Below are positions 33,045 to 46,551 of a stretch of DNA of 64,000 nt, piece after piece. The first letter of the stretch is position 1; every line of letters starts with the position of its first letter. The notes below the pieces were generated by a model. The model was not told the DNA's origin, did not search any database, and saw only the letters and a list, made by a program, of their open reading frames with translations. The stretch spans positions 1-64,000 of the IMG/VR virus record IMGVR_UViG_3300018080_000122. One strand, written 5' to 3'. The DNA is from a virus. The translations under genes and the position numbers were made by a program.

Positions 33045-34577
33045 ATGGATAAAAGCAAGAGAATACTAGCTGTTTTACGTGCTGATTTGGGTCTGCCTAC
33101 ACTTAATAAAGATAAGAGGCAGGAGTGGGCCGCCAAAAGCACGACGTCCGCAAAGCGCCTACTACAGCAGTCTGACGAGTTTGAACTCATACGGGAACGT
33201 CTGGCCATACTGCGCAACCTCTCCCATCGTGTGCACAACAAAGCAATGACTAGCATTTACTTCACCAAAAAGACTAATTATCTAAAATCCAAGAAAGGTG
33301 AATCTGGAGTAAACGCGCAGTCCCAAGCCTATAGAGATGTGCTGAACGATAATGACGATCCTTTAGCGTCACATCTCAAAGATCAAGGCGTCCCAACAGG
33401 ATTTATAACGACTACAATAAATTTTGTCTCGCAGTGTTACAACAAAACCAAGGAAAAGCAGGTCAACATGGGCGACCAATCTCTACCATCATGGAAGTAC
33501 CCCAGCCCTGTAAGTTTTGCACGAGCGCTGTGGCGTGTAGAGAAGATGGATTATGTAACTATGGACGGTACCGTCAAGAAAGTCGACGCCATACGAGTGC
33601 CTTTGTGGAGCAGAGACGCAGCTAAAGACGCCGGGAGGAAAGGCACTAGTAAATGCTCAGCGTGTATCCCCATATTCCCTCCAACCAAGAACAAAAACGG
33701 TAAGAAGATAGCCCACAACGATTATTGGTGGGCAAGGTTCAAAAAGCTGCTAGATAACGCCAGCGCACAAGGTGGCCTCAAAATAATCTGGGACAAAAAG
33801 AAGAAAAAATGGTGCGCCCTCATATCTGTGTATGAGGACAAAGCAGAGCCGTCCACAAAAAACAAAATCCTTGGAGTAGACATCGGAATCACTAACCCGG
33901 TCGTGTGTGCCGTTGGCCACGGTTGGGGAGTTAAGTTCATAGGGAGCAAGCGAGAAATGCTTAGAAAGAAAGGGTATTTCAAAAATAAAATTAGGGAGTG
34001 CGGCCGCTCCAGCAAGGGCAGAAAGTGGGTTCCTGGTAATGGTGGTCGGGGGTTCAAACGGCGCAACAAAAAAATGATGCAAATACAGAACGCGGCGGCC
34101 AGATACTGTAACACCAAGTGCCAACAATATGCCGCTAAGGTGGTCAAGATGTGCAAGAATTTGGGATGCGGCATCATAGCCATCGAGAAATTCAGAAAAT
34201 CTCCTGTTAAACAAGCCCAGGAGAAGTCCGCCAATGACAGGGGATACGTTGAGAAGAAAGTGCTAATGTGGCGCCCATATCTGATGCATATGGCCATTAT
34301 CAATGCAGCTACTCGCGCAGGTATACAAGTTATTCAGGTAGACGCTGGGTACACATCACAGAGATGCGCGCAATGCGGATGCATACTTAAGGCTAACAGG
34401 GACGTCAATAATGCCCAAGAGTTTTGTTGCCAGAAATGTGGGCATAAAGAAAATGCAGACGTCAATGCTGCCCGTAACGTGGCGCAGCAAGCCGCAGGGG
34501 AGTGGAAGGCCCCCAAAAAGATCAAAACCAAATCCAACGCAAAAAACAAAATCAAGGCCAATAAAAAGATAGGGTAA
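33045..34577 (+). CDS. compact type V effector, Cas12f/TnpB-like RuvC nuclease (510 aa)
   Basis: GDQSLPSWK (Cas12f-like), RuvC-I LGVDIG, RuvC-II IAIE, YTSQRCAQCG...CQKCG Zn finger, RuvC-III NADVNAARN; 73 bp from the array. Confidence 0.85.
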   Translation: MDKSKRILAVLRADLGLPTLNKDKRQEWAAKSTTSAKRLLQQSDEFELIRERLAILRNLSHRVHNKAMTSIYFTKKTNYLKSKKGESGVNAQSQAYRDVLNDNDDPLASHLKDQGVPTGFITTTINFVSQCYNKTKEKQVNMGDQSLPSWKYPSPVSFARALWRVEKMDYVTMDGTVKKVDAIRVPLWSRDAAKDAGRKGTSKCSACIPIFPPTKNKNGKKIAHNDYWWARFKKLLDNASAQGGLKIIWDKKKKKWCALISVYEDKAEPSTKNKILGVDIGITNPVVCAVGHGWGVKFIGSKREMLRKKGYFKNKIRECGRSSKGRKWVPGNGGRGFKRRNKKMMQIQNAAARYCNTKCQQYAAKVVKMCKNLGCGIIAIEKFRKSPVKQAQEKSANDRGYVEKKVLMWRPYLMHMAIINAATRAGIQVIQVDAGYTSQRCAQCGCILKANRDVNNAQEFCCQKCGHKENADVNAARNVAQQAAGEWKAPKKIKTKSNAKNKIKANKKIG

Positions 34578-35081: not shown

Positions 35082-36732
35082 ATGAGCGAACCTCATCAAG
35101 TCAGCGAGCCGGAACCAAATCCTCTCAGCCTCTACCGCGAGAACCAACGCCTTCGTGCAATGATTGCACATATGAAAGACGGCGGATGCCATGCTGCGCA
35201 TCCGGGCGAAATCACCTACGAATGCTCCCTACACATTCCTGGCGGCAAATGTTGGGCGTGTAGAGCACGTGCCGCGATGGAGCCTGAAACAGACAACGAT
35301 TCTCTGCGCCGTGCGATTCGCTTGGTGATTGATGCTGCCGAGACGCTAAGTAGCGCGGCGGGCTACGAGCCCGATGGTGAAGGTGGAATGGACCATCGTG
35401 GTATGTGTCAGCAAGAACTGGATGCTGTAGAGCGCGTGAAGAGATGGCTTGGGCCGAGGCCGATCACACCCGAACTAAGGGACTAGTCCTAGAGTGCATC
35501 GATCTACTGGACGCGAGGAATCTGAAATGAGACTGAGCGACAAGAATAGGGAGATCCGTCGAGAGTTCGACCTGGGTAAGCGGTTGGTGATCCGATGCGC
35601 TGATTGCCGTCGCGTAGTCGCGAGCACCCCCTGGGTAGTGCCTACATGGTCTTCGCCTAAAGAAGAAGTCTACGCTTTGTGCGGCTGGTGTAGGAAGCGC
35701 AAGGGGTCAGCCGATGAATCACCGCCTGAATAAACTCGCTGAAGCACTCTGCATAACGCCGACAAACAACCTGCGTCTCGAACTGTCGCATGTCGGTGGA
35801 AAGCGGGCGTGGTGGCTCTGTGGCTGCAAAGAAGGCGATCAGGCTCTTCCACAGACCGGCAACGCCGAGACAGCCGAGGAAGCCCTGGGGAATGCCGAGA
35901 GATGGCTCGCGCCGGAACTGGATCGTCTGGATTGGGAAGATCGAGAAGCAAAACGGCTGATGTACGAGGGAGAGGAGTGATGATGAATCTAAACGATGTA
36001 GAGATGGATGATCTGACCCCGTTTAAGCGACCTGTCTGTAGATGGGCAGTTCATCCTGTCATCGACGACGATAAAGTAATCGGTCATGAAGTCCTGCTGC
36101 GGCTCGGATTCCACAAACAATATATTCCGATCACCGAAGACCAAGCCAAAACCCTGAAGGCGATGCATCTAGATGCTTATGGAGCCCAGTGTGCGGCTGA
36201 GTTGGCCAAGAATCCCGTCATGCCGTCCGACGAGAAAGAAATACTTGCTGCCGCTGAGAATTACGAAGCGACAGTGGAGCAGGCTATGGACGACGCAGAA
36301 CGCATGTTGCCGCCGCTTATTGAAGATCTGATGGCTTGTGAGCAGCAGAAGATACGGTAAAATATGTCACTCAAATGTATAGTCTGTAGCAAAAACATGG
36401 AGTTAGCCACTTTGCCCAACACTAGGCGCGGGCTCGTTCCAGTGCTGGACGGCGTAGTGTGCTACACAAGCGGGTCGTTCGGCTCCAACGTGTTTGAAGA
36501 ACTGAACATCGGCAAGTACACCAGAAAACTGCTGCAGTTTGTTATATGCGACGACTGCCTGAAGAAGAACGCGGACAACATCTTCTTCGTGAAAGAAGTG
36601 ACCACTAAGTCTGTAGTGGACTACATGACTTTAGAGGATTACTGCGCCAGGGAACAGCAGAACCTGAAAGACATGTACAGTAAGCTCGTGTTCAAATCCA
36701 CAGAGAAGAGGAACAAAGATGAAAATACGTAA
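35082..36732 (+). other. run of small hypothetical genes (about 35082-35486, 35527-35733, 35714-35980, 35980-36360, 36364-36732)
   Basis: Coupled short ORFs with RBSs; several carry CxxC motifs. Confidence 0.5.
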
Positions 36733-37210
36733 CGGATTTGTATCTAATTCTAGCAGCTCAAGTTTTGTGGTGGGGTTTAACCCCGTCCCAGAAACCAAAG
36801 AAGAGTTGAAAGAAATGCTCTGGGGTGACCTAGAAGCCTTGGGAGCCTACGACTACGGCATCACCACCGAAAGGGCAGCTGATATTGTCTGGCAAGACTT
36901 GCAAGAGCAAGAAGGTCCTCTGACTCGTGAAGAGATCATTGCGATGATTTCACAGGACTACATGCCAGAACTAGACGGGCACAAATGGTGGAGCATCACA
37001 GATCTCAAAGAACAAGAAAAGGCCCGCGAGAAATACTACAATAAGAAGATAGAGCGCGCCACAGAATTGGCCAAAGAGATGTTCGAGAAAGCTGGCGAAG
37101 GCACCAAGTTCTTCCAGTTTCGTTACCACGATGATACTTCAAACGGAACTGTGCTCGAACATGGGGACGTCTTCAGGAACGTGCCCAGCTACAGAATAAA
37201 CGAACACTAA
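36719..37210 (+). CDS. NSSS-tag family protein 1
   Basis: MKIRNGFVSNSSSSSFVVGFN. Confidence 0.85.
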   Translation: MKIRNGFVSNSSSSSFVVGFNPVPETKEELKEMLWGDLEALGAYDYGITTERAADIVWQDLQEQEGPLTREEIIAMISQDYMPELDGHKWWSITDLKEQEKAREKYYNKKIERATELAKEMFEKAGEGTKFFQFRYHDDTSNGTVLEHGDVFRNVPSYRINEH

Positions 37211-37219
37211 GGATGAAAA

Positions 37220-37585
37220 ATGAAGATACGAAACGGTTTTGTGTCCAACTCCAGCAGTTCCAGCTTCGTGCTCATCGTCCATCCCAATGATCACAAAAAA
37301 GCTATGGAACAATTCTCAGGACATGAATCTAAGTTCCTGAATGCCTTGGTCTCCTGGCGTAAAGTCCTTGGTGAGTGGGCACGTGTGTTTTCTGGCGAGT
37401 TCAGCACGGAGAACGCGTGTATTGATATAAATAAATTATTCATGATGTGGGAGGGGGATTTCTACAAAAAGCACCCAGAATTCCAGATGTGCTTCGATGA
37501 AATGCGCACGTGCTTCCAAAATTACAGACGGTACGTGACCAAGATCGCCAAATTCAAACCGTTCTATGACGAGAAAGATTACTAG
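37220..37585 (+). CDS. NSSS-tag family protein 2
   Basis: MKIRNGFVSNSSSSSFVLIV. Confidence 0.85.
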   Translation: MKIRNGFVSNSSSSSFVLIVHPNDHKKAMEQFSGHESKFLNALVSWRKVLGEWARVFSGEFSTENACIDINKLFMMWEGDFYKKHPEFQMCFDEMRTCFQNYRRYVTKIAKFKPFYDEKDY

Positions 37586-37594
37586 GAGATAGAC

Positions 37595-37990
37595 ATGAAG
37601 ACCAGAGACGGGTTCGTATCCAATTCCAGCAGCACCAGCTTCACTGTAGGTTTCAATGGCAAACCTCCAAACAAAAAAGAAATACTAGAAATGTTTGGAG
37701 TTGAGGAGCATTCCCCACTTCGGAGTTTGGCCTGGGAGCTGTCAGACTTCTTCGCGAAACGAATCCGTGATCTGGAGAAACACGAAACGGATTCGAAAGA
37801 CGATTGGGAAAGGGAGTGCGCCGAACGCGACACGAGGCTGTTCAAAGAAGTTGGCCTGACATATCAAGGTTTCTTCAGATGTGAGCGTGATTTCGCGGAG
37901 TGCAATCAGCCCATGGCTGGGTGGGCTATTCCCTGGATAAAGAACGAAAAGCTTTATATTGTCAACCATGAACGGGGAGACATGAGATAG
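37595..37990 (+). CDS. NSSS-tag family protein 3
   Basis: MKTRDGFVSNSSSTSFTVGFN. Confidence 0.85.
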   Translation: MKTRDGFVSNSSSTSFTVGFNGKPPNKKEILEMFGVEEHSPLRSLAWELSDFFAKRIRDLEKHETDSKDDWERECAERDTRLFKEVGLTYQGFFRCERDFAECNQPMAGWAIPWIKNEKLYIVNHERGDMR

Positions 37991-38186
37991 TGCGCTACCG
38001 TGTACGATCATACAGTCATCCCAGTTATGAGGATCTCCCTCACGAAGTCATGATACTTCGCGGGGCCGAAGCCAAGGACCTGTCATTGGTTGTCCCGGTC
38101 ATGTTTGGTATGGGAGCCAAGAAAATCATAATTGAAGACGAAGATGAGTGGCTGGCCGCAGAGAAAAAGGCAGCGGAGGATTGTAC

Positions 38187-38864
38187 ATGAAAGTCAGGAA
38201 TGGTTTTGTGAGTAATTCCAGTTCTTCCAGCTTTATAGCGCAGAAGATATATCTGTCCTACATGCATCTTAAAGCCATCAGAGAGCACGGCATTCTCCTC
38301 AAAGACATCTCGCCAACCGACCCTTGGGGTTTTGGTATTGTCTATCCAGATGACTTAGAGCACGACCGCGCCTCAGAAACACCTATAAGTCAGAAGCAGC
38401 TTAGAGAGTGGCACGATCTTCGCTACGCTGATGACGCTTGGATTATTGATGAGACGGATTCCCATATTGCTGGCGCTACCATCATGGATAATTTCAGTTT
38501 CAAATGGTTCCTGCGCGCCATCGGCGTACCAGAAATAGCCTTCATGTGCTTCGAGAATGAGCATTTTGATTGTTGTCACCGTGTCGTTGAAGATATGCTG
38601 ACCAATAGATGTGGGTATAAACAACAAGCGTATCGTTACGACAAGTGGGCAGAAGTGGCCAGCGCAACCGTTTTTGTAGATCCCGAACCCGATGAAGAAG
38701 ATCTTATAGCAGCAATACGTGACGCGATCTACCCTCTTGGAAAAACAATAACAGGCATCAGGAAAGAAATCAAAAGCAAAACGGTTGCGCCATTTAGGAT
38801 TTCGATTATGACTGAAGAGTGGCTCATTAAAAGAAGGGAGGCAATAGATGGGGCTAAGTCATAA
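38187..38864 (+). CDS. NSSS-tag family protein 4
   Basis: ATG at 38187 after GGAGG: MKVRNGFVSNSSSSSFI. Confidence 0.85.
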   Translation: MKVRNGFVSNSSSSSFIAQKIYLSYMHLKAIREHGILLKDISPTDPWGFGIVYPDDLEHDRASETPISQKQLREWHDLRYADDAWIIDETDSHIAGATIMDNFSFKWFLRAIGVPEIAFMCFENEHFDCCHRVVEDMLTNRCGYKQQAYRYDKWAEVASATVFVDPEPDEEDLIAAIRDAIYPLGKTITGIRKEIKSKTVAPFRISIMTEEWLIKRREAIDGAKS

Positions 38865-39186
38865 TATTTATGTCGGCCCGTATCTGCAAATCAAAGGCGC
38901 AGATGATTTGTGGGAAATCCTAGAAGACCTGGGCGAGCGTTTAAGCATCTTCAATCAAGAGTACGGACCCGACGACTATGATTTGGTAACTCCCAACGTG
39001 GATTGGGGAGTTGGTCGGGAGACCTACCTGGACAGGAATTGGTGTGGCGAGATGTTGATGAGCGGCGCCCGCATCGGTAAAGAGAAAGAAGAATTTGCCA
39101 GGTTTTTCTTTACAGACATCTTGAATCTTCAAAACCGATGCGGCAGTGTGATCTTGGAGTGGGGCATTCTAGGAGAGATAATCTAA
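38848..39186 (+). CDS. hypothetical protein within the NSSS cluster
   Basis: GGAGG RBS; coupled to neighbours. Confidence 0.6.
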   Translation: MGLSHNIYVGPYLQIKGADDLWEILEDLGERLSIFNQEYGPDDYDLVTPNVDWGVGRETYLDRNWCGEMLMSGARIGKEKEEFARFFFTDILNLQNRCGSVILEWGILGEII

Positions 39187-39677
39187 TGAAGACCCGCCAC
39201 GGATTTGTTAGCAATTCGAGCAGCTCGTCGTACACGTGTGATCTCTGCGGTGTAGCGCGCGTCTCGTATAATGAAGGCCTAGACGGCACAGAGATGGTCT
39301 ATTGTGTTGGCTGCCACCATACCATATGCGAAGAACATCTTGCAGAACAAGATTTCGCAGGGTGGCTAGCTGAGCGCGAACACGCGCTTAAAAGAATAGG
39401 AGATGATATTACACTTGCACTTGAACAAGAAGAGTATGACTTGCTGGCGCGGCTGGCCAAGACCGCGTCTGACATAAAGCAGGACGTGAATAGCCCGCGC
39501 GATCCAAACACGGTGACGCCACAGTGGTGCCCCATATGCCAGATGGAGCGCCTACCGAATGTTCTGCTATTCCGGTACCTAACCAAAATTCAAAACACTC
39601 ACCTGGATATCATCCTTGGAGAGATCCAAGAAAGATTTTCTGACTATGAGTCTTTCATGAAGTTCATTGAAGGCTAG
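39186..39677 (+). CDS. NSSS-tag family protein 5 (Zn-binding type)
   Basis: ATG at 39186: MKTRHGFVSNSSSSSYTCDLC...C..CHHTICEEH...CPIC. Confidence 0.85.
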   Translation: MKTRHGFVSNSSSSSYTCDLCGVARVSYNEGLDGTEMVYCVGCHHTICEEHLAEQDFAGWLAEREHALKRIGDDITLALEQEEYDLLARLAKTASDIKQDVNSPRDPNTVTPQWCPICQMERLPNVLLFRYLTKIQNTHLDIILGEIQERFSDYESFMKFIEG

Positions 39678-39692
39678 ATAAAGGAGGTAAAA

Positions 39693-40187
39693 ATGAAGAT
39701 CCGGCATGGTTTTGTATCAAATTCCAGTAGTTCAAGTTTCGTGTGCGAAGTTTGCGGTCATTCAGAAGTGAGCTACGCAGACCCTGAAGACATGGTCTAC
39801 TGTGAAGATAAGGCCCACCTGTTCTGTAAAGAGCATTTGGTTGGAGTGGATTTAAACGACTGGATAGAAGAGCAGCGAAAAGAACTTCAGCGACTGAAAG
39901 AGAAGGTTGCCGAAGCGGTTGAAAATGATCTATACCATTTGGTGCAGTCTCTTACCAGGGAGATCAACCACATAAAAAATAAGATGGCAAGGGGGCGCCC
40001 AGAAAGTGAAAATGGCGACGGCCACGTCCCGTCGTCCCAGTGCCCACTATGCCAAATGACGGAATTCCATGACCGCATTCTACTCAACTATCTCATGAAG
40101 AAGCACAACACGGACAAGAAGACCATCACTGCAGCAATTCGAGGGCAATACAAAACTTACAAGGATGTTCAAGATTCTTTATCCTGA
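39693..40187 (+). CDS. NSSS-tag family protein 6 (Zn-binding type)
   Basis: MKIRHGFVSNSSSSSFVCEVC...HLFCKEH...CPLC. Confidence 0.85.
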   Translation: MKIRHGFVSNSSSSSFVCEVCGHSEVSYADPEDMVYCEDKAHLFCKEHLVGVDLNDWIEEQRKELQRLKEKVAEAVENDLYHLVQSLTREINHIKNKMARGRPESENGDGHVPSSQCPLCQMTEFHDRILLNYLMKKHNTDKKTITAAIRGQYKTYKDVQDSLS

Positions 40188-40202
40188 GCCAAGGAGATTT
40201 TT

Positions 40203-40787
40203 ATGAAAGTACGCTATGGTTTCGTTTCAAATTCCAGCAGTTCATCCTTTACATGTGATGTGTGCGGCCACAATGCTTCTGGGTGGGACATGGATTGTGC
40301 TGAAGCGCAGATATTCCTATGTGAAAATGGCCACTCTATTTGCTACGAGCACGGGCTCATATCAGACAGGTTCAAAAAATACATGGTCGACCTGAAAGCC
40401 GGTATTGAAAAGGCCATAAAAGATGATGATTTCGAAAGCCTGGATAAGTACCGCTCTGACTGTGTCTACATTGAGAACCTTGCAGGGGCCACCGAGACGT
40501 TAGAAGAAATTCAGGATTTCCTGGAAGATCCAACAATGGCCAATATTCCTAAAATTGGGGATTATCGTGATGAGATGCTTTATGCCGCCCCCGCAGATGT
40601 ATGCCCTATATGCGCCATAAAGAACATCGACATCCATACTATGGCCAGATACCTCCTCCTGAAAACCGGGCAGACGGCGCGAGAAGTAGCTTCAGAGATG
40701 TGCGACGCCTTCGTATCTCACAAGAAAATGCACGAGAAGCTGCGTGAAGTGGATTTACCAAAACACACCGTGGAAGTAGTTAAGTAG
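40203..40787 (+). CDS. NSSS-tag family protein 7 (Zn-binding type)
   Basis: MKVRYGFVSNSSSSSFTCDVC...CENGHSICYEH...CPIC. Confidence 0.85.
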   Translation: MKVRYGFVSNSSSSSFTCDVCGHNASGWDMDCAEAQIFLCENGHSICYEHGLISDRFKKYMVDLKAGIEKAIKDDDFESLDKYRSDCVYIENLAGATETLEEIQDFLEDPTMANIPKIGDYRDEMLYAAPADVCPICAIKNIDIHTMARYLLLKTGQTAREVASEMCDAFVSHKKMHEKLREVDLPKHTVEVVK

Positions 40788-40801
40788 GAAGGAGACTAGC
40801 C

Positions 40802-41185
40802 GTGAACATTATTCTGGAGGGCATCAACAGAGAGTTCACCATCTGGTGGACATATCTCGATGACCGCCCAAAAGATAAGTTGGATCTCATAACTGCCATG
40901 CATGCCGTTGGCCAGATATATAGAGAGGGCGCGCGGAAGATAATGTGCACCCTATTTGACAATACTAGAGAAGTGGCATGGACCGGGTTCGCTCAATGTT
41001 CCTCTTCAGACCATTTCTCCAAACCGGCTGGGCGTAAAATAAGCCTCACCAGAGCCCTGGCCAATTCCGACATCGACAAGCCCATAAGAACCAAGATCTG
41101 GAAAGAGGTCGCGAAGACGTCCCCGAAGACACTCAGATGCAGCGTAGGCCACATACAGACGAGAGGATCCAAAAGTGAAGATTAG
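40802..41185 (+). CDS. hypothetical phage protein
   Basis: G.AQCSSSD.F.K..GRKISL.RAL. Confidence 0.6.
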   Translation: MNIILEGINREFTIWWTYLDDRPKDKLDLITAMHAVGQIYREGARKIMCTLFDNTREVAWTGFAQCSSSDHFSKPAGRKISLTRALANSDIDKPIRTKIWKEVAKTSPKTLRCSVGHIQTRGSKSED

Positions 41186-41570
41186 ATCAGGTTTTGTCAG
41201 CAACAGCAGCACCAGCTCTTTCATTCTGATTGTGACGGAAGACGCTCATCAAGGGGTCCTAAAGCACATACCAGAAGAGTACCATCCAATGTTAAACTAT
41301 GGATTTAGGGAGACCAAAGTCTTTGGGCGGCCCGCTAGGGTATTCACGATCCTTTCAGATCACGGTGGCAGTTACTCCAGCATGTGCTTGGAATATTGCC
41401 GCGAGGACATCAGTTTCCCTTGCCCTCCACCCAAGATTCAGCCTGAAGGCATGGACCTACCAAGACGGGCGCAAGAACCTGAGTGTGAGTACGAGCTGAA
41501 GAATGCCTACGAAGAAATCCTCAAAATAGTCGCCCCAGACGGGTTTTTTTCCAAGAGTATTGGCGATTAA
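41175..41570 (+). CDS. NSSS-tag family protein 8
   Basis: GTG start: MKIRSGFVSNSSTSSFILIV. Confidence 0.85.
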   Translation: MKIRSGFVSNSSTSSFILIVTEDAHQGVLKHIPEEYHPMLNYGFRETKVFGRPARVFTILSDHGGSYSSMCLEYCREDISFPCPPPKIQPEGMDLPRRAQEPECEYELKNAYEEILKIVAPDGFFSKSIGD

Positions 41571-41573
41571 TCC

Positions 41574-41601
41574 TTGCGCTAACCAAATCTCTTGCTACGA
41601 T
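41574..41601 (+). promoter_or_regulatory. phage promoter TTGCGCTAAC-N12-TACGAT upstream of the radical SAM gene
   Basis: Recurrent motif. Confidence 0.6.
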
Positions 41602-41634
41602 ATTACCAGAGCAAAACAGAAAAGGAGGCAATTA

Positions 41635-42705
41635 ATGAATCGTCAGGTGATTACTGTAGAGGGATTTGGTGACGTCACCATTGCAGATTCCGAATACGCC
41701 AAGGTGATTAGGTCCGAAAACTACAACATGGGGTTCAACAAAATCACTGGATATATGGCCAGGTGGGGGAAAACTCACGATGACGATCCAGACTACGGCC
41801 CCGGACCAGAGTTGCTTGACATAGAGATTAGCGTCAATGACTGCCCCAACAATTGCCGTTTTTGTTACAAGGGCAACACGAGTGAGCCCGGCAGGCACAT
41901 GTCGCTGGAGACCTTCAAGCGCGTCATGCAAGGTATGCCCAAGACGGTGACGCAGATCGCCTTTGGCATAACAGGATTGAAGGCTAACCCAGACTTTATT
42001 CCTATCCTGAAGCATTGTAGGGATCTGGGCATCGTTCCCAATTTCACCCTGTCAGGCGTAGGTCTCGACGAAGACTTTGCGCACCAGGTAGTGCCCCTTG
42101 TTGGCGCGGTCGCTGTCAGTGCCTACGAATCCGACAAGAACGTGTGTTACAACGCGGTGGAGATGCTTAGCCGCCATATCGACCAGACGAACATCCACTT
42201 GCTCATATGTAAGGAGACCGTGCCTTTCGTGGAGGAAGTTCTGGAAGACATTTGCCACGACCAAAGGCTTGCGAAACTTAGAGCAGTGGTATTCCTCTGT
42301 CTGAAACCGAAGGGGCGGGCTGCTGGCAGGTTCCACCAACCGTCGCAGGCAGACTACGATAAGGTCATCAACTACTGCTTGGAGAGGGATATCAGGTTTG
42401 GTTTCGATTCGTGCGGTGCGCCCAAATTTGAAGAATCCGTGATTGCCTCCAAAGCGTTGAAGGCACATCAGAAGCAGCAGCTCATCCAGTGTTCGGAGCG
42501 GTGCGAATCGTTCGGCATGTTTAGTGCCTACATCAACGTTGATGGTAAGTACTATCCGTGCTCATTCTGCGAAGACGAACCGGGGTGGGAAGACGGCTTA
42601 GAATTTGACAATTTCCTGACCGACGTGTGGCTGTCCGACAAAGTAAAGGCGTGGCGCGATAAGGCTTTGTCAGCCAAACGCGAATGCGTGATGTTCGATC
42701 TGTGA
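41635..42705 (+). CDS. radical SAM enzyme with SPASM/twitch-like C-terminal domain
   Basis: CPNNCRFCY; C-terminal CES...YINVDGKYYPCSFC...W...C; ATG at 41635 after AGGAGG. Confidence 0.9.
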   Translation: MNRQVITVEGFGDVTIADSEYAKVIRSENYNMGFNKITGYMARWGKTHDDDPDYGPGPELLDIEISVNDCPNNCRFCYKGNTSEPGRHMSLETFKRVMQGMPKTVTQIAFGITGLKANPDFIPILKHCRDLGIVPNFTLSGVGLDEDFAHQVVPLVGAVAVSAYESDKNVCYNAVEMLSRHIDQTNIHLLICKETVPFVEEVLEDICHDQRLAKLRAVVFLCLKPKGRAAGRFHQPSQADYDKVINYCLERDIRFGFDSCGAPKFEESVIASKALKAHQKQQLIQCSERCESFGMFSAYINVDGKYYPCSFCEDEPGWEDGLEFDNFLTDVWLSDKVKAWRDKALSAKRECVMFDL

Positions 42706-43638: not shown

Positions 43639-46551
43639 GTGCCCAAAACGCGCTCTCTTGCTATAATACTAAGGAGCACGGGACACAAGAGACAAGGACA
43701 TGATGTGCCAGGACGACTAGACTCGATGGTTTGGATACCTCGCAACGATCTTCCAGACTATTCTATAGACGCCTCCGACCTGAAACTAAAATACCAATCT
43801 GGTTATGGTGCTTCAGAACGAGTAGAAACTCTGAAGCTATACGTGCCAGAAAAACTGGTGGTGGGCATTCCGAGAGCTTACTTCTACCGTGCTGCTGGTA
43901 GCGCGGCAGGAAGTGTAAAAGACTGTAGAACGCGGGGGCGACACGTCAAGTTCCCTTTCAAGAGCACCCTCCGACCTAACCAAGTTGAAATCACGGACAC
44001 CTTTTATAAGCACCTTATAGACTCCCCTCATAATGGCGGTATCTTATGTGCACCCTGTGGCGCTGGCAAAACGGTCATGGCGTTGCATACCATTGCCAGG
44101 CTTGAGCGCTCTACCTTAGTCATTGTCCACACGTCAAGACTGCTTAATCAATGGATTGAGCGCATAGAAGAGCACATGGGAATCACAGCAGGGGTCATTA
44201 GAGAAGACGCTTTCGAGACGGACGCAGACATTGTAGTGGCAATGTTGCAAACTTTGCTGTCCAGGGGATACACAGCGAAAGACTTGAGCATGTTCGGCAC
44301 TTGTGCCGTGGACGAAACCCATCGCGTTGCAGCGCCCACGTGGTCTAGCGTTATCAAATCCCTTCCTATGAAATACCGTTTGGGTCTCACAGCGACTCCA
44401 AGACGATCAGACAAACTCGACAACGCTTTTTTCTTTCATATAGGGAAAGTGCTGGCCAAATCTGAAAAGAGAGAAATGAAGCCTCGCATTTATTTTGTCA
44501 ATACTAACGTGGGATTCAGGGTGCCCATGCTGGGAAACGGCAAAGTGAACAGAGCCCGCGCATTGAATATCCTGGCCAAGAATAAAGAGCGAAACCGTAA
44601 GATATCCAAAGAAATAGTCAAAGCTATAAAGTCGGACCGAGTGATTCTGGTATTATCTGACCGCATGGAGCTGCTGTATCATCAACGTAGACTATTAAAG
44701 GAACGGGATATCCCAGACGACAAGATAGGTTGGGTAGTAGGAGCCCACTGGGCAGGCGTTGATCCTGATGACCCATCAGAAGACCTTGAACAAGAAAGAA
44801 CCGCTAGCGGGCCTCCCAAGGCCGTCCTGCGGGCTGTCAAGAAGATAGTTCAAGAGCACGCGCCTCACGAGGAAGTCACGGTGGAAGGAAAGTGGATATT
44901 CGTCAGTGGCGCCAATACGCTTCCAATAGATGATTTGCTTGCGATACCAGGGCTCACAAAAGGTAAATACAAAGGGAACACAATAGGACTGGCAACTAAA
45001 ATAGTTGGTGGGCAGCCCAAAACAGTGAAGATCCCAGAAGCGCAGATGAAGGAAAACCAAAAGAGACAAATACTTTTGGCCACATTTGGGCTTGCCTGTG
45101 TAGATATAAATACTAATATTGTCGACCCATTGACTGGGCATAGCAATCTTCTAAGAGACCTAATAGGCACCAAACCAGAAATCGTGAGTGCCAGTAACTG
45201 CACAGGAAAATTAGTAACGGCGTCTTGTGTCGCTTATTCTGGAATAAAGGAGTGTGTAAAAGTCACTATTGCAGACAACTCGTTAGTGTTGTCAAACGAT
45301 CATTTAGTCTTCACACACAGAGGGAAAGTGCCAGCGGGGGATCTTACCACACAAGACTACATACTGCGGCCACGTATTGTAAAATGCCCCACAAGAAGCA
45401 TAGATGTAGACAAAGACGACATGTGGCTGGCGGGCATGCTATTGGGTGACGGGGCTATATCACAAATACACAAAAGGATAGCGCAGGTTATAAATGCCGA
45501 TGAAGAGGTTTTGGAACATGTTTCCAGTATTTTAAATAACAGAGGAATGCTAATCAAAAAAGTAAAGTGCAGGGACTACCACTACTGGATACGTTCTAAA
45601 AAAGGTAAGGCTGGGCGCGGAGCGAAGACATGGCTACGCAGATTTGTTGAACGTTGGGGCCTTTCAAACACAGCAAGATTTAAACATATACCTATAGAAT
45701 GGATGATGTCAAGCACCCACCTTATTAAATCTTTGCTTGGCGGGTTGTTTGCGTCGGACGGACATGTAGACAATAGGGGAACACCCGGATTCTCAAGTTC
45801 CAGCCGCAGAATGGCAGAACAAGTTCGTTTCTTGCTGTGGAGGTTGGGACTGCAATCCACTATACGTAAATCTGAAAGCACGTGGTCGATTGGGGTACCA
45901 GCCAGTAGTGCTTTGCGTCTAGACATTGATTGGCGCATAACAAGAAAAGCCAATAGACTTGACGAGCACAACCGTATGCATAACAAGTTATCTTTGGGCA
46001 CTTGGAATAAAATACCTGTACATCTGGTTTTGCGCATTAAAGAGATAGCTAAGACCAAGGGCGTCAAAATAGAAGAAATGATTAGGTTATGCAGGAAATA
46101 CGGCTACGCTGCGACTAACCTACGCCATAATCAACTAGAGGTAACTTACGAAGTAGCGTCTCTGCTAATGGAAATTCTCGGAGTAGAGGATGCTCCAGAA
46201 TTACAAAATATTAAAAATTTCCATTTTATGCCTGTGCTGAATATTGAAACGGTTGGGCCTAGACCAGTAGGAGATATGACAGTACCAGGACTGCACCGTT
46301 GGGTGACGAACGGTATGTTAATACATAACAGCGAAGGGCTCGATATCCCCGCCGTTGACGTTTTAGTATTAGCAACACCACGGTCGGACGTGGAGCAGGC
46401 TGTCGGTCGTGCTCTTAGAACACTTCCGGGTAAGAAGCAGCCGATAATAGTTGATTTTGTAGACGCTGCCTCGTATTTCCAAGCGCTAAAGGGTAAGAGG
46501 CGAAGGCAGTATCGCAAGCTGGGCTACGAAGTAGTAGAAACGAGGTCATAA
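43639..46551 (+). CDS. superfamily 2 DNA helicase, intein-containing
   Basis: APCGAGKT, VDETH, GLTATP, SEGLDIP, QAVGRALR; start uncertain. Confidence 0.9.
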   Translation: MPKTRSLAIILRSTGHKRQGHDVPGRLDSMVWIPRNDLPDYSIDASDLKLKYQSGYGASERVETLKLYVPEKLVVGIPRAYFYRAAGSAAGSVKDCRTRGRHVKFPFKSTLRPNQVEITDTFYKHLIDSPHNGGILCAPCGAGKTVMALHTIARLERSTLVIVHTSRLLNQWIERIEEHMGITAGVIREDAFETDADIVVAMLQTLLSRGYTAKDLSMFGTCAVDETHRVAAPTWSSVIKSLPMKYRLGLTATPRRSDKLDNAFFFHIGKVLAKSEKREMKPRIYFVNTNVGFRVPMLGNGKVNRARALNILAKNKERNRKISKEIVKAIKSDRVILVLSDRMELLYHQRRLLKERDIPDDKIGWVVGAHWAGVDPDDPSEDLEQERTASGPPKAVLRAVKKIVQEHAPHEEVTVEGKWIFVSGANTLPIDDLLAIPGLTKGKYKGNTIGLATKIVGGQPKTVKIPEAQMKENQKRQILLATFGLACVDINTNIVDPLTGHSNLLRDLIGTKPEIVSASNCTGKLVTASCVAYSGIKECVKVTIADNSLVLSNDHLVFTHRGKVPAGDLTTQDYILRPRIVKCPTRSIDVDKDDMWLAGMLLGDGAISQIHKRIAQVINADEEVLEHVSSILNNRGMLIKKVKCRDYHYWIRSKKGKAGRGAKTWLRRFVERWGLSNTARFKHIPIEWMMSSTHLIKSLLGGLFASDGHVDNRGTPGFSSSSRRMAEQVRFLLWRLGLQSTIRKSESTWSIGVPASSALRLDIDWRITRKANRLDEHNRMHNKLSLGTWNKIPVHLVLRIKEIAKTKGVKIEEMIRLCRKYGYAATNLRHNQLEVTYEVASLLMEILGVEDAPELQNIKNFHFMPVLNIETVGPRPVGDMTVPGLHRWVTNGMLIHNSEGLDIPAVDVLVLATPRSDVEQAVGRALRTLPGKKQPIIVDFVDAASYFQALKGKRRRQYRKLGYEVVETRS
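45097..46329 (+). mobile_element. intein (411 aa) with LAGLIDADG homing endonuclease
   Basis: CVDINT...LIHN|S; LAGMLLGDG and LGGLFASDG. Confidence 0.9.

Follow-up and report, generated by a model that had tools for sequence, protein, structure and literature searches.

A 64,000-nucleotide stretch of viral DNA (positions 1–64,000 of IMG/VR record IMGVR_UViG_3300018080_000122, here called the window; the whole virus record comprises 115,571 bp, with a CheckV completeness estimate of 71%) carries on its + strand an array of eight genes whose products open with the same 16-residue peptide (the tag), followed by a gene for a radical-SAM enzyme. Across phages, tag genes and this clade of enzymes are linked in both directions, the tag is held at a fixed distance from the N-terminus of proteins whose bodies are unrelated, and its first residues are predicted to form a free tail. 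We lean, with moderate confidence, towards a reading in which the enzyme modifies the tag tail of a diversified set of client proteins, and rank this above three alternatives: that the tag is a docking peptide, that it is a signal independent of the enzyme, and that the peptide is itself the product.

An N-terminal tag on unrelated proteins

The eight open reading frames (ORFs) open with MK(I/T/V)R(N/D/H/Y/S)GFVSNSS(S/T)(S/T)S(F/Y), and all of them are present where a preliminary description of this DNA had placed their starts. Seven begin with ATG and one, at 41175, with GTG; a GGAG-type ribosome-binding site lies 6–10 nt upstream of every one. Protein 1 (163 residues, 36719–37210) belongs to phrog_7397, the commonest body family, and protein 3 (131 residues, 37595–37990) has a body remotely related to it, whereas protein 2 (121 residues, 37220–37585) is a singleton at the level of BLAST. 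The body family of protein 4 (225 residues, 38187–38864) is found in 26 other loci. Proteins 5 (163 residues, 39186–39677), 6 (164 residues, 39693–40187) and 7 (194 residues, 40203–40787) are of zinc-ribbon type, with C18, C37, H42, C117 and C120 invariant in protein 6, and the array ends with protein 8 (131 residues, 41175–41570), the one with the GTG start. No further copy of the tag was found in the window or in the whole virus record.

Eleven positions (M1, K2, R4, G6, F7, V8, S9, N10, S11, S12 and S15) are invariant in the eight window tags and a homologue from Vibrio phage D479. The family-wide consensus is MKIRxGFVSNSSSSSF: over 361 occurrences (320 unique ORFs), K2, R4, G6, F7, S9, N10, S11 and S12 are conserved at 98–100%, and S14 may be replaced by T, A or C. 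The start codon stands exactly five codons ahead of G6 in 351 of the 361. Copies of the tag differ synonymously, and among 463 family members AGY as well as TCN codons are in use at each serine position; it is hence the peptide that is under selection, as the preliminary description had held, and a DNA-level repeat or a constrained codon is ruled out as the cause of conservation. The impression given by the window that one serine is always AGY is local and does not hold across the 463 members.

The tag is widespread in viruses. A tag-only profile of 32 positions, run against 1.84 billion cluster representatives (clusters at 50% identity; E ≤ 0.001), matched 23,856 protein clusters, almost always at residues 1–30. 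Among the proteins of large phages that still lack an explanation, those with the tag form one of the largest sets. GFVSNSSS was matched at 464 places in IMG/VR, and the tag pattern in only 136 stretches of a prokaryote set (one genome each for 185,579 species); 17 loci of that set encode a relative of protein 1, nearly all of them on contigs of metagenome-assembled genomes that look like binned phage contigs. Neither blastn of the region nor tblastn of protein 1 matched isolate phages, probably because of low-complexity masking and divergence, as searches with hidden Markov models (HMMs) do detect tags in Citrobacter phage Margaery and in D479. Literature searches on motif strings and phage radical-SAM terms returned no description of the tag or the enzyme.

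Six proteins of the global protein library (P0125–P0129 and P0145) carry two complete tags each, the second internal and still Met-first; in these, adjoining tag genes seem to have fused or to be read through, and both copies in P0145 have the variant DFVTNSS. A glycyl-radical site (RVxG[FWY]) was considered for the tag and rejected, as its R-x-G-F is one residue short and G6 is replaceable: it is S in all tags of one locus (L111) and D in the bacterial form described below.

Behind the tag, the bodies range from 80 to 279 residues and fall into 112 BLAST groups among 459 tagged proteins. When the 14 largest groups were compared by hhalign with the tag removed, the highest probability was 51%, all other pairs reached at most 24% and most stayed below 5%. 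Pfam scans found no domain in the eight window proteins and, among 112 body representatives, none except one zinc ribbon. The subtypes proposed in the preliminary description are solid for proteins 5, 6 and 7, which align; for 1 with 3 and for 2 with 8, the similarity is marginal (E about 0.008–0.009, each from a single comparison). The protein 1 family has conserved C-terminal residues of its own (D138, LEHGD at 146–150, F152 and the terminal H163), specific to that family. A metallophosphoesterase- or HAD-like site composed of the tag with SDxDG, LEHGD and the terminal histidine of protein 1 was dropped because other body families lack these motifs and fold searches gave no support.

AlphaFold2 models were built for protein 1 (with 99 homologues) and protein 6 (with 21 sequences), and reached predicted local distance difference test (pLDDT) values of 91.7 and 84.5, respectively. 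In both, residues 1–10 are poorly ordered (mean pLDDT 51 and 44), and a first strand follows, at residues 13–20 in protein 1 and, shorter, at 14–17 in protein 6, where it feeds a zinc ribbon, then a long helical hairpin and a helical bundle. The two predicted folds differ. Since the folds are not the same, residues 1–10 are floppy and the body profiles are mostly unrelated, the tag is no core strand of a fold common to these proteins, a possibility that the preliminary description had named as fatal to its own proposal. In these models, the tag instead appears bipartite, with a free tail of 12 residues and an anchor strand at residues 13–18. Searches of solved and viral folds with the protein 1 model (Foldseek against PDB, VIA-align wide and BFVD) and with the protein 6 model (VIA-align wide) returned generic helical matches only and no fold assignment (best Z 6.2 and 8.6, respectively), and the protein 1 family profile matched nothing among PDB sequences (best E 6.2).

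A radical-SAM enzyme linked to the tag

The preliminary description had proposed a functional tie between the tag and the enzyme encoded next to it, which co-occurrence and synteny would reveal; the linkage does run in both directions. Of 77 loci fetched from IMG/VR by the GFVSNSSS pattern, 44 have an enzyme homologue (35–51% identity) within 10 kb and on the same strand, with 1–14 tag genes arrayed next to it. Conversely, among 80 loci retrieved with an alignment of 30 enzymes, 73 have at least one tag within 10 kb by the strict pattern and 75 if variant tags are allowed, with 326 tags on the strand of the enzyme and 3 on the opposite one. Clustering of + strand ORFs placed tags in 75 loci, the enzyme in 46 and the next group in 14; as only two ORF groups are widely common, the module has two components. 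No third partner gene, a protease or exporter included, is common across the loci in this clustering.

Whole records, about ten of them near-complete genomes, extend this picture. Seven of eight near-complete genomes that seemed to be exceptions hold the enzyme further off (G001, G002, G004, G010, G011, G012 and G014), and the whole records G006, G007 and G009 hold 4, 7 and 12 tags. Only one complete genome lacks the enzyme (G005; 224.8 kb, with terminal repeats), and it has a single tag gene of protein 1 type (L044:9980–10672) in which the ATG start has become ACG and LEHGD has become MENGN, a decay that fits dependence on the enzyme. The enzyme is also present in 172 T4-like isolate phages of enterobacteria and Vibrio. 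By HMM search, D479 has five tags and Margaery has two tag genes, some 20 kb from its enzyme; the latter, CPT_Margaery115 and 120, flank a 748-residue hypothetical protein in an early-type region beside baseplate genes (L197:4822–7068, record positions 67821–70067).

The tag brings T4 to mind, whose internal-protein loci encode small, hyper-variable proteins with a short N-terminal tag in common. A tag at residue 1 of diverse small proteins would suit a sorting or fate signal that is independent of the enzyme (for capsid packaging and injection as in T4, or as a degron), and Asn-Ser and Ser-Ser, both present in the tag, are classic autoprocessing junctions, as would befit a self-processing motif; in either case, the enzyme would be linked for some other reason, and the early-type location of tag genes far from the enzyme in T4-like phages agrees with this. 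We nevertheless consider such independence unlikely. Two-way, same-strand linkage to enzymes that are 35–50% identical, with no other gene in common, is hard to explain in this manner; the pair occurs also in plasmid STAND operons (see below), at loci without annotated capsid genes; a T4-type prohead protease would find no L/I-x-E site in the tag, glutamate being absent from consensus positions 1–16; and the only complete genome that lacks the enzyme is the one with the decayed tag gene.

The enzyme gene (41635–42705, + strand) encodes 356 residues from ATG 41635. Its frame is open from TTG 41560, from which residues are numbered here, but ATG 41635 is most likely the true start because AAGGAGG stands seven bases before it and the Atlas record of the protein begins there. 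A promoter of its own, claimed for this gene in the preliminary description, was not borne out: no promoter-like site precedes the gene in a promoter scan, and counts from the promoter and terminator scan of the region are at chance level. The CxxxCxxC motif (C95, C99 and C102) is invariant in 30 homologues, with a longer first spacer in some. Against Pfam Radical_SAM (PF04055), the window enzyme scores 25.4 bits, below the cut-off of 29.5, whereas a plasmid homologue scores 59.8; against SPASM, it scores 23.5 bits, above the cut-off of 21.5. It matches phrog_7293, for which no function is annotated, at E = 4.5e-66, and the structural neighbours of its Atlas model are virus-only Radical_SAM clusters. 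The named models nearest to it, the tungsten-cofactor maturase and PqqE, give weak partial matches (PqqE E = 0.0013).

The assignment to radical-SAM/SPASM enzymes made in the preliminary description thus stands for the cluster motif and for a cysteine-bearing C-terminal domain, but not for a full SPASM domain. Four C-terminal cysteines (C285, C315, C334 and C376) are invariant in the 30 homologues, and the seven-cysteine motif CX9–15GX4C...CX2CX5CX3C...C is absent; to judge from the sequence, a twitch-like domain with a single auxiliary cluster fits better. The 30 homologues also share a 45-residue N-terminal element, YNYxFxKxxGxFxRWGKTxEDDP, without a Pfam match.

Several related phages have a radical-SAM gene that is broken at precisely the third cysteine of CxxxCxxC (L043:10483–13021, L050:6513–9122, L072:7204–9553 and L078:6797–9108). 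The N-terminal piece ends in an intein-N half of about 100 residues that starts C-[LSV]-P-x-G, the second piece starts with an intein-C half of 35–39 residues that ends in LVHN directly before CYK, and between them lies a free-standing, zinc-finger-rich ORF of 265–345 residues, probably a homing endonuclease. A contiguous mini-intein occupies the same site in another locus (L075:9063–10064). The +1 nucleophile of these inteins is the cluster-ligand cysteine.

SPASM and twitch enzymes typically make RiPPs, ribosomally synthesized peptides that undergo post-translational modification, and the matches of the window enzyme in Pfam and NCBIfam are to PqqE-like models. The first 12–16 residues could themselves be such a product, modified and released by the enzyme as an N-terminal core with a C-terminal follower, the bodies serving as carriers, scaffolds or immunity parts; an invariant core would then yield one identical product from many genes. 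The tag, moreover, contains F-V-S-N-S, and radical-SAM/SPASM genes occur with FxSxx peptides in conflict systems (PMC7159879). We regard this as the least probable of the four readings, and a quite improbable one: the loci share no protease or exporter gene, residues 13–18 are built into the fold of each body, and the bodies are kept intact, well folded and diverse over 80–279 residues, properties that a mere carrier would not need.

The pair is also found in bacteria. A tblastn search of plasmids with the window enzyme returned eight records, three of which (alphaproteobacterial plasmids, two from Agrobacterium and one from Rhodobacter) carry a STAND operon in which an SMEK-NACHT (Avs2-like) gene is followed, in two of the three by way of an untagged 121-residue ORF, by a tagged protein of 131–132 residues and then a radical-SAM homologue 30–34% identical to the window enzyme (L198:2593–7029, L201:1547–6002 and L202:1640–6092). 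The STAND protein matches Pfam SMEK_N (E = 4e-42) and NACHT, as well as PADLOC Avs2 (E = 8e-27), and the tagged protein starts MK(I/L)K(L/M)DFVSNSSSTSF. The family of the latter has 301 matches (Methylomonas, Vibrio and Roseovarius among their sources), with about 50% identity across phyla and no recorded Pfam domain; in an hhalign comparison with the phage protein 1 family, only the tag aligns (32 columns). No STAND-size ORF lies beside the array in the window, and no STAND NTPase is among the ORF groups common across loci.

This three-gene architecture is that of the KpAvs2 operon (Béchon et al. 2024; PMC11564622), which encodes the STAND nuclease Avs2, the radical-SAM protein Avap1 and the small protein Avap2. 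There, Avap2 binds Avs2 and is required for defence, Avap1 is required against T2 and dispensable against SECphi18, and no function is assigned to either in the published study (PMC11564622). PF19902 (DUF6375, the HHpred label of Avap2) was considered as a Pfam home of the tag proteins and discarded, as it matched neither the window's genome (E up to 10) nor the plasmid tag protein.

Possible contact, modification or docking

Variants of the tag suggest direct contact with the enzyme. GHVSNSS is the reading in each of the four tags of L102 and SLVSNSS in each of the three of L111, although position 7 is H in only 6 and L in only 5 of 449 tags overall. The L102 enzyme, in turn, departs from an alignment of 30 enzymes by T131D (a position conserved in 28 of them) and Q132S (conserved in all 30). 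Tag variants thus change together within a genome, and once together with the enzyme, a pattern that fits direct contact, with a single case on the enzyme side.

The structure prediction of an enzyme–tag complex, suggested in the preliminary description, was run with the enzyme, SAM, two clusters and protein 1. It gave a median score of 0.45 (runs 0.45, 0.76 and 0.41), against 0.01 for the best control. Of 80 solved complexes, 58 attained the mark set for this score, as did 2 of 110 mismatched pairs; those that reached it with scores of 0.60 or less were 7 of the 80 solved complexes and both of the passing mismatches. At least 25% of contacts are common to the runs, and the partner pLDDT is at least 53. 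The prediction lends weak support to direct enzyme–tag contact.

Contact would be equally expected if the tag were a docking peptide, by which the tagged proteins plug into the enzyme as interchangeable adaptors or regulatory subunits, their bodies directing it to host proteins, nucleic acids or small molecules, or switching it on and off. Linkage, co-variation and the complex prediction serve this view just as well, the diversified bodies look like target-recognition modules, and the small accessory protein of KpAvs2 does bind Avs2 (PMC11564622). It is nonetheless a doubtful alternative, albeit the strongest of the three. Interfaces usually drift with their partner, whereas the tag stays 98–100% invariant over enzymes whose identity drops to 35%, and up to 14 adaptors per enzyme would compete for one site. 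Because the tail is near-invariant and the enzyme much more variable, we favour the constraint of an active site over simple docking.

For modification of the tag by the enzyme, we envisage a two-component phage module of one radical-SAM enzyme, with a domain for a single auxiliary Fe-S cluster, and diversified clients. Residues 1–12 (MKxRxGFVSNSS) would form the free N-terminal tail, and residues 13–18 (SSSF and two hydrophobic residues) the first β-strand, anchoring the tail to whichever body follows. We infer that the enzyme binds the tail and acts catalytically on it: its 5′-deoxyadenosyl radical would abstract a hydrogen from an invariant residue, most likely within F7-V8-S9-N10-S11-S12, and leave a covalent change there. 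Candidates for this change are conversion of serine to formylglycine, as by anSME, a carbon–carbon crosslink between F7 and S9, as in three-residue cyclophanes, epimerization and cleavage; serine oxidation, aromatic-to-Cβ crosslinking, epimerization and cleavage are all compatible with the known chemistry of such enzymes. The variable bodies would then carry a common modified N-terminus to different targets. Three observations fit dependence on the enzyme: the tag keeps a fixed distance from the N-terminus, its variants are concerted, and the lone tag gene has decayed in the genome without the enzyme.

Several points weigh against modification. The enzyme has no recognizable RiPP recognition element (RRE) or PqqD-type peptide-binding domain by Pfam match. 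The tag lacks the motifs of characterized SPASM substrates: it has no invariant cysteine and no (C/S)-x-(P/A)-x-R, neither the (C/S)xPxR form nor any Pro/Ala-x-Arg after a serine. The complex prediction is weak and provides no usable contacts, and modification of the tag is itself inferred. In T4-like phages, tag genes some 20 kb from the enzyme show that co-transcription is not universal. Finally, if Avap2 is a tagged protein, such a protein can act without the enzyme, as against SECphi18.

Tagged proteins have radiated in phages, whereas bacterial STAND operons keep a single conserved form; the contrast suggests a function in an arms race, without indicating which side benefits. One tentative extension, which we hold to be possible but improbable, is that the phage arrays encode counter-defence or host-takeover effectors that bear a radical-derived mark (formylglycine or an F7–S9 cyclophane) and engage or jam Avs2-type sensors that use the same enzyme–tag pair; phage–host conflict would then revolve around a new post-translational modification. 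Modification of the tag, for its part, would constitute a new protein-level activity of radical-SAM enzymes, would annotate thousands of dark-matter phage genes at once and would explain the pair of accessory genes in Avs2-type immune operons. That a single dedicated radical-SAM clade is the partner provides a direct experimental handle, and a short invariant tag with a cognate enzyme is a possible tool for protein engineering.

Neighbouring genes and known systems

Three untagged + strand ORFs, of 66 (37990–38190), 112 (38848–39186) and 127 residues (40802–41185), lie within the array; their membership in it is uncertain, and none has a PHROG match. Just downstream of the module, a helicase-like ORF of 970 residues (43639–46551) contains, as read from its translation, an intein-like insert with the LAGLIDADG-type motifs LAGMLLGDG and LLGGLFASDG, which ends in HN and is followed by S. 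A TnpB/Cas12f-like ORF of 510 residues with a C-terminal zinc finger (33045–34577) lies 2 kb upstream of the array.

Among characterized systems, anSME and AtsB offer a close parallel for the proposed reaction: a radical-SAM enzyme that bears an auxiliary Fe-S domain at its C-terminus would take whole proteins, not short peptides, as substrates, would recognize a short invariant serine motif near the N-terminus without a leader peptide or RRE, and would serve many paralogous clients. By contrast, the tag lacks (C/S)xPxR, the window clients are not sulfatases and share no common fold, and the window enzyme has four auxiliary cysteines where anSME has about eight; similarity to solved SPASM enzymes is marginal (the PqqE match noted above). 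The RiPP maturases (PqqE, SuiB/StrB, SkfB, CteB and the three-residue cyclophane enzymes) resemble the module in having one enzyme with multiple tandem genes that combine a conserved N-terminal segment with a variable remainder, and the closest weak profiles are of PqqE type and of the tungsten-cofactor maturase. Here, however, the conserved part consists of 16 residues at the extreme N-terminus and the rest is a folded protein of 80–279 residues, with no RRE match in the enzyme and no protease or exporter common across loci.

In the VMAP-ternary conflict systems, which are NTPase based, a radical-SAM/SPASM gene accompanies variable proteins with an FxSxx peptide (Kaur, Burroughs, Iyer and Aravind 2020; PMC7159879), to which the F-V-S-N-S of the tag may be compared. 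That peptide is C-terminal and cut by a dedicated peptidase (PMC7159879), whereas the tag is N-terminal, has no linked peptidase and occurs in phages. From the capsid-targeting peptides of T4, the tag differs in sequence, in the lack of an L/I-x-E site, in its linkage to a radical-SAM enzyme and in that the module is also found in bacteria. The plasmid operons have the published architecture of KpAvs2, and the Klebsiella Avap1 and Avap2 may belong to the present families; the window differs in having no STAND gene and eight diverse tagged proteins, compared with one conserved tagged protein in bacteria. A radical-SAM maturase with motif-bearing clients is thus an already known kind of system, and what is new here is that whole, unrelated proteins carry an N-terminal tag of 16 residues, as well as the phage setting and the scale.

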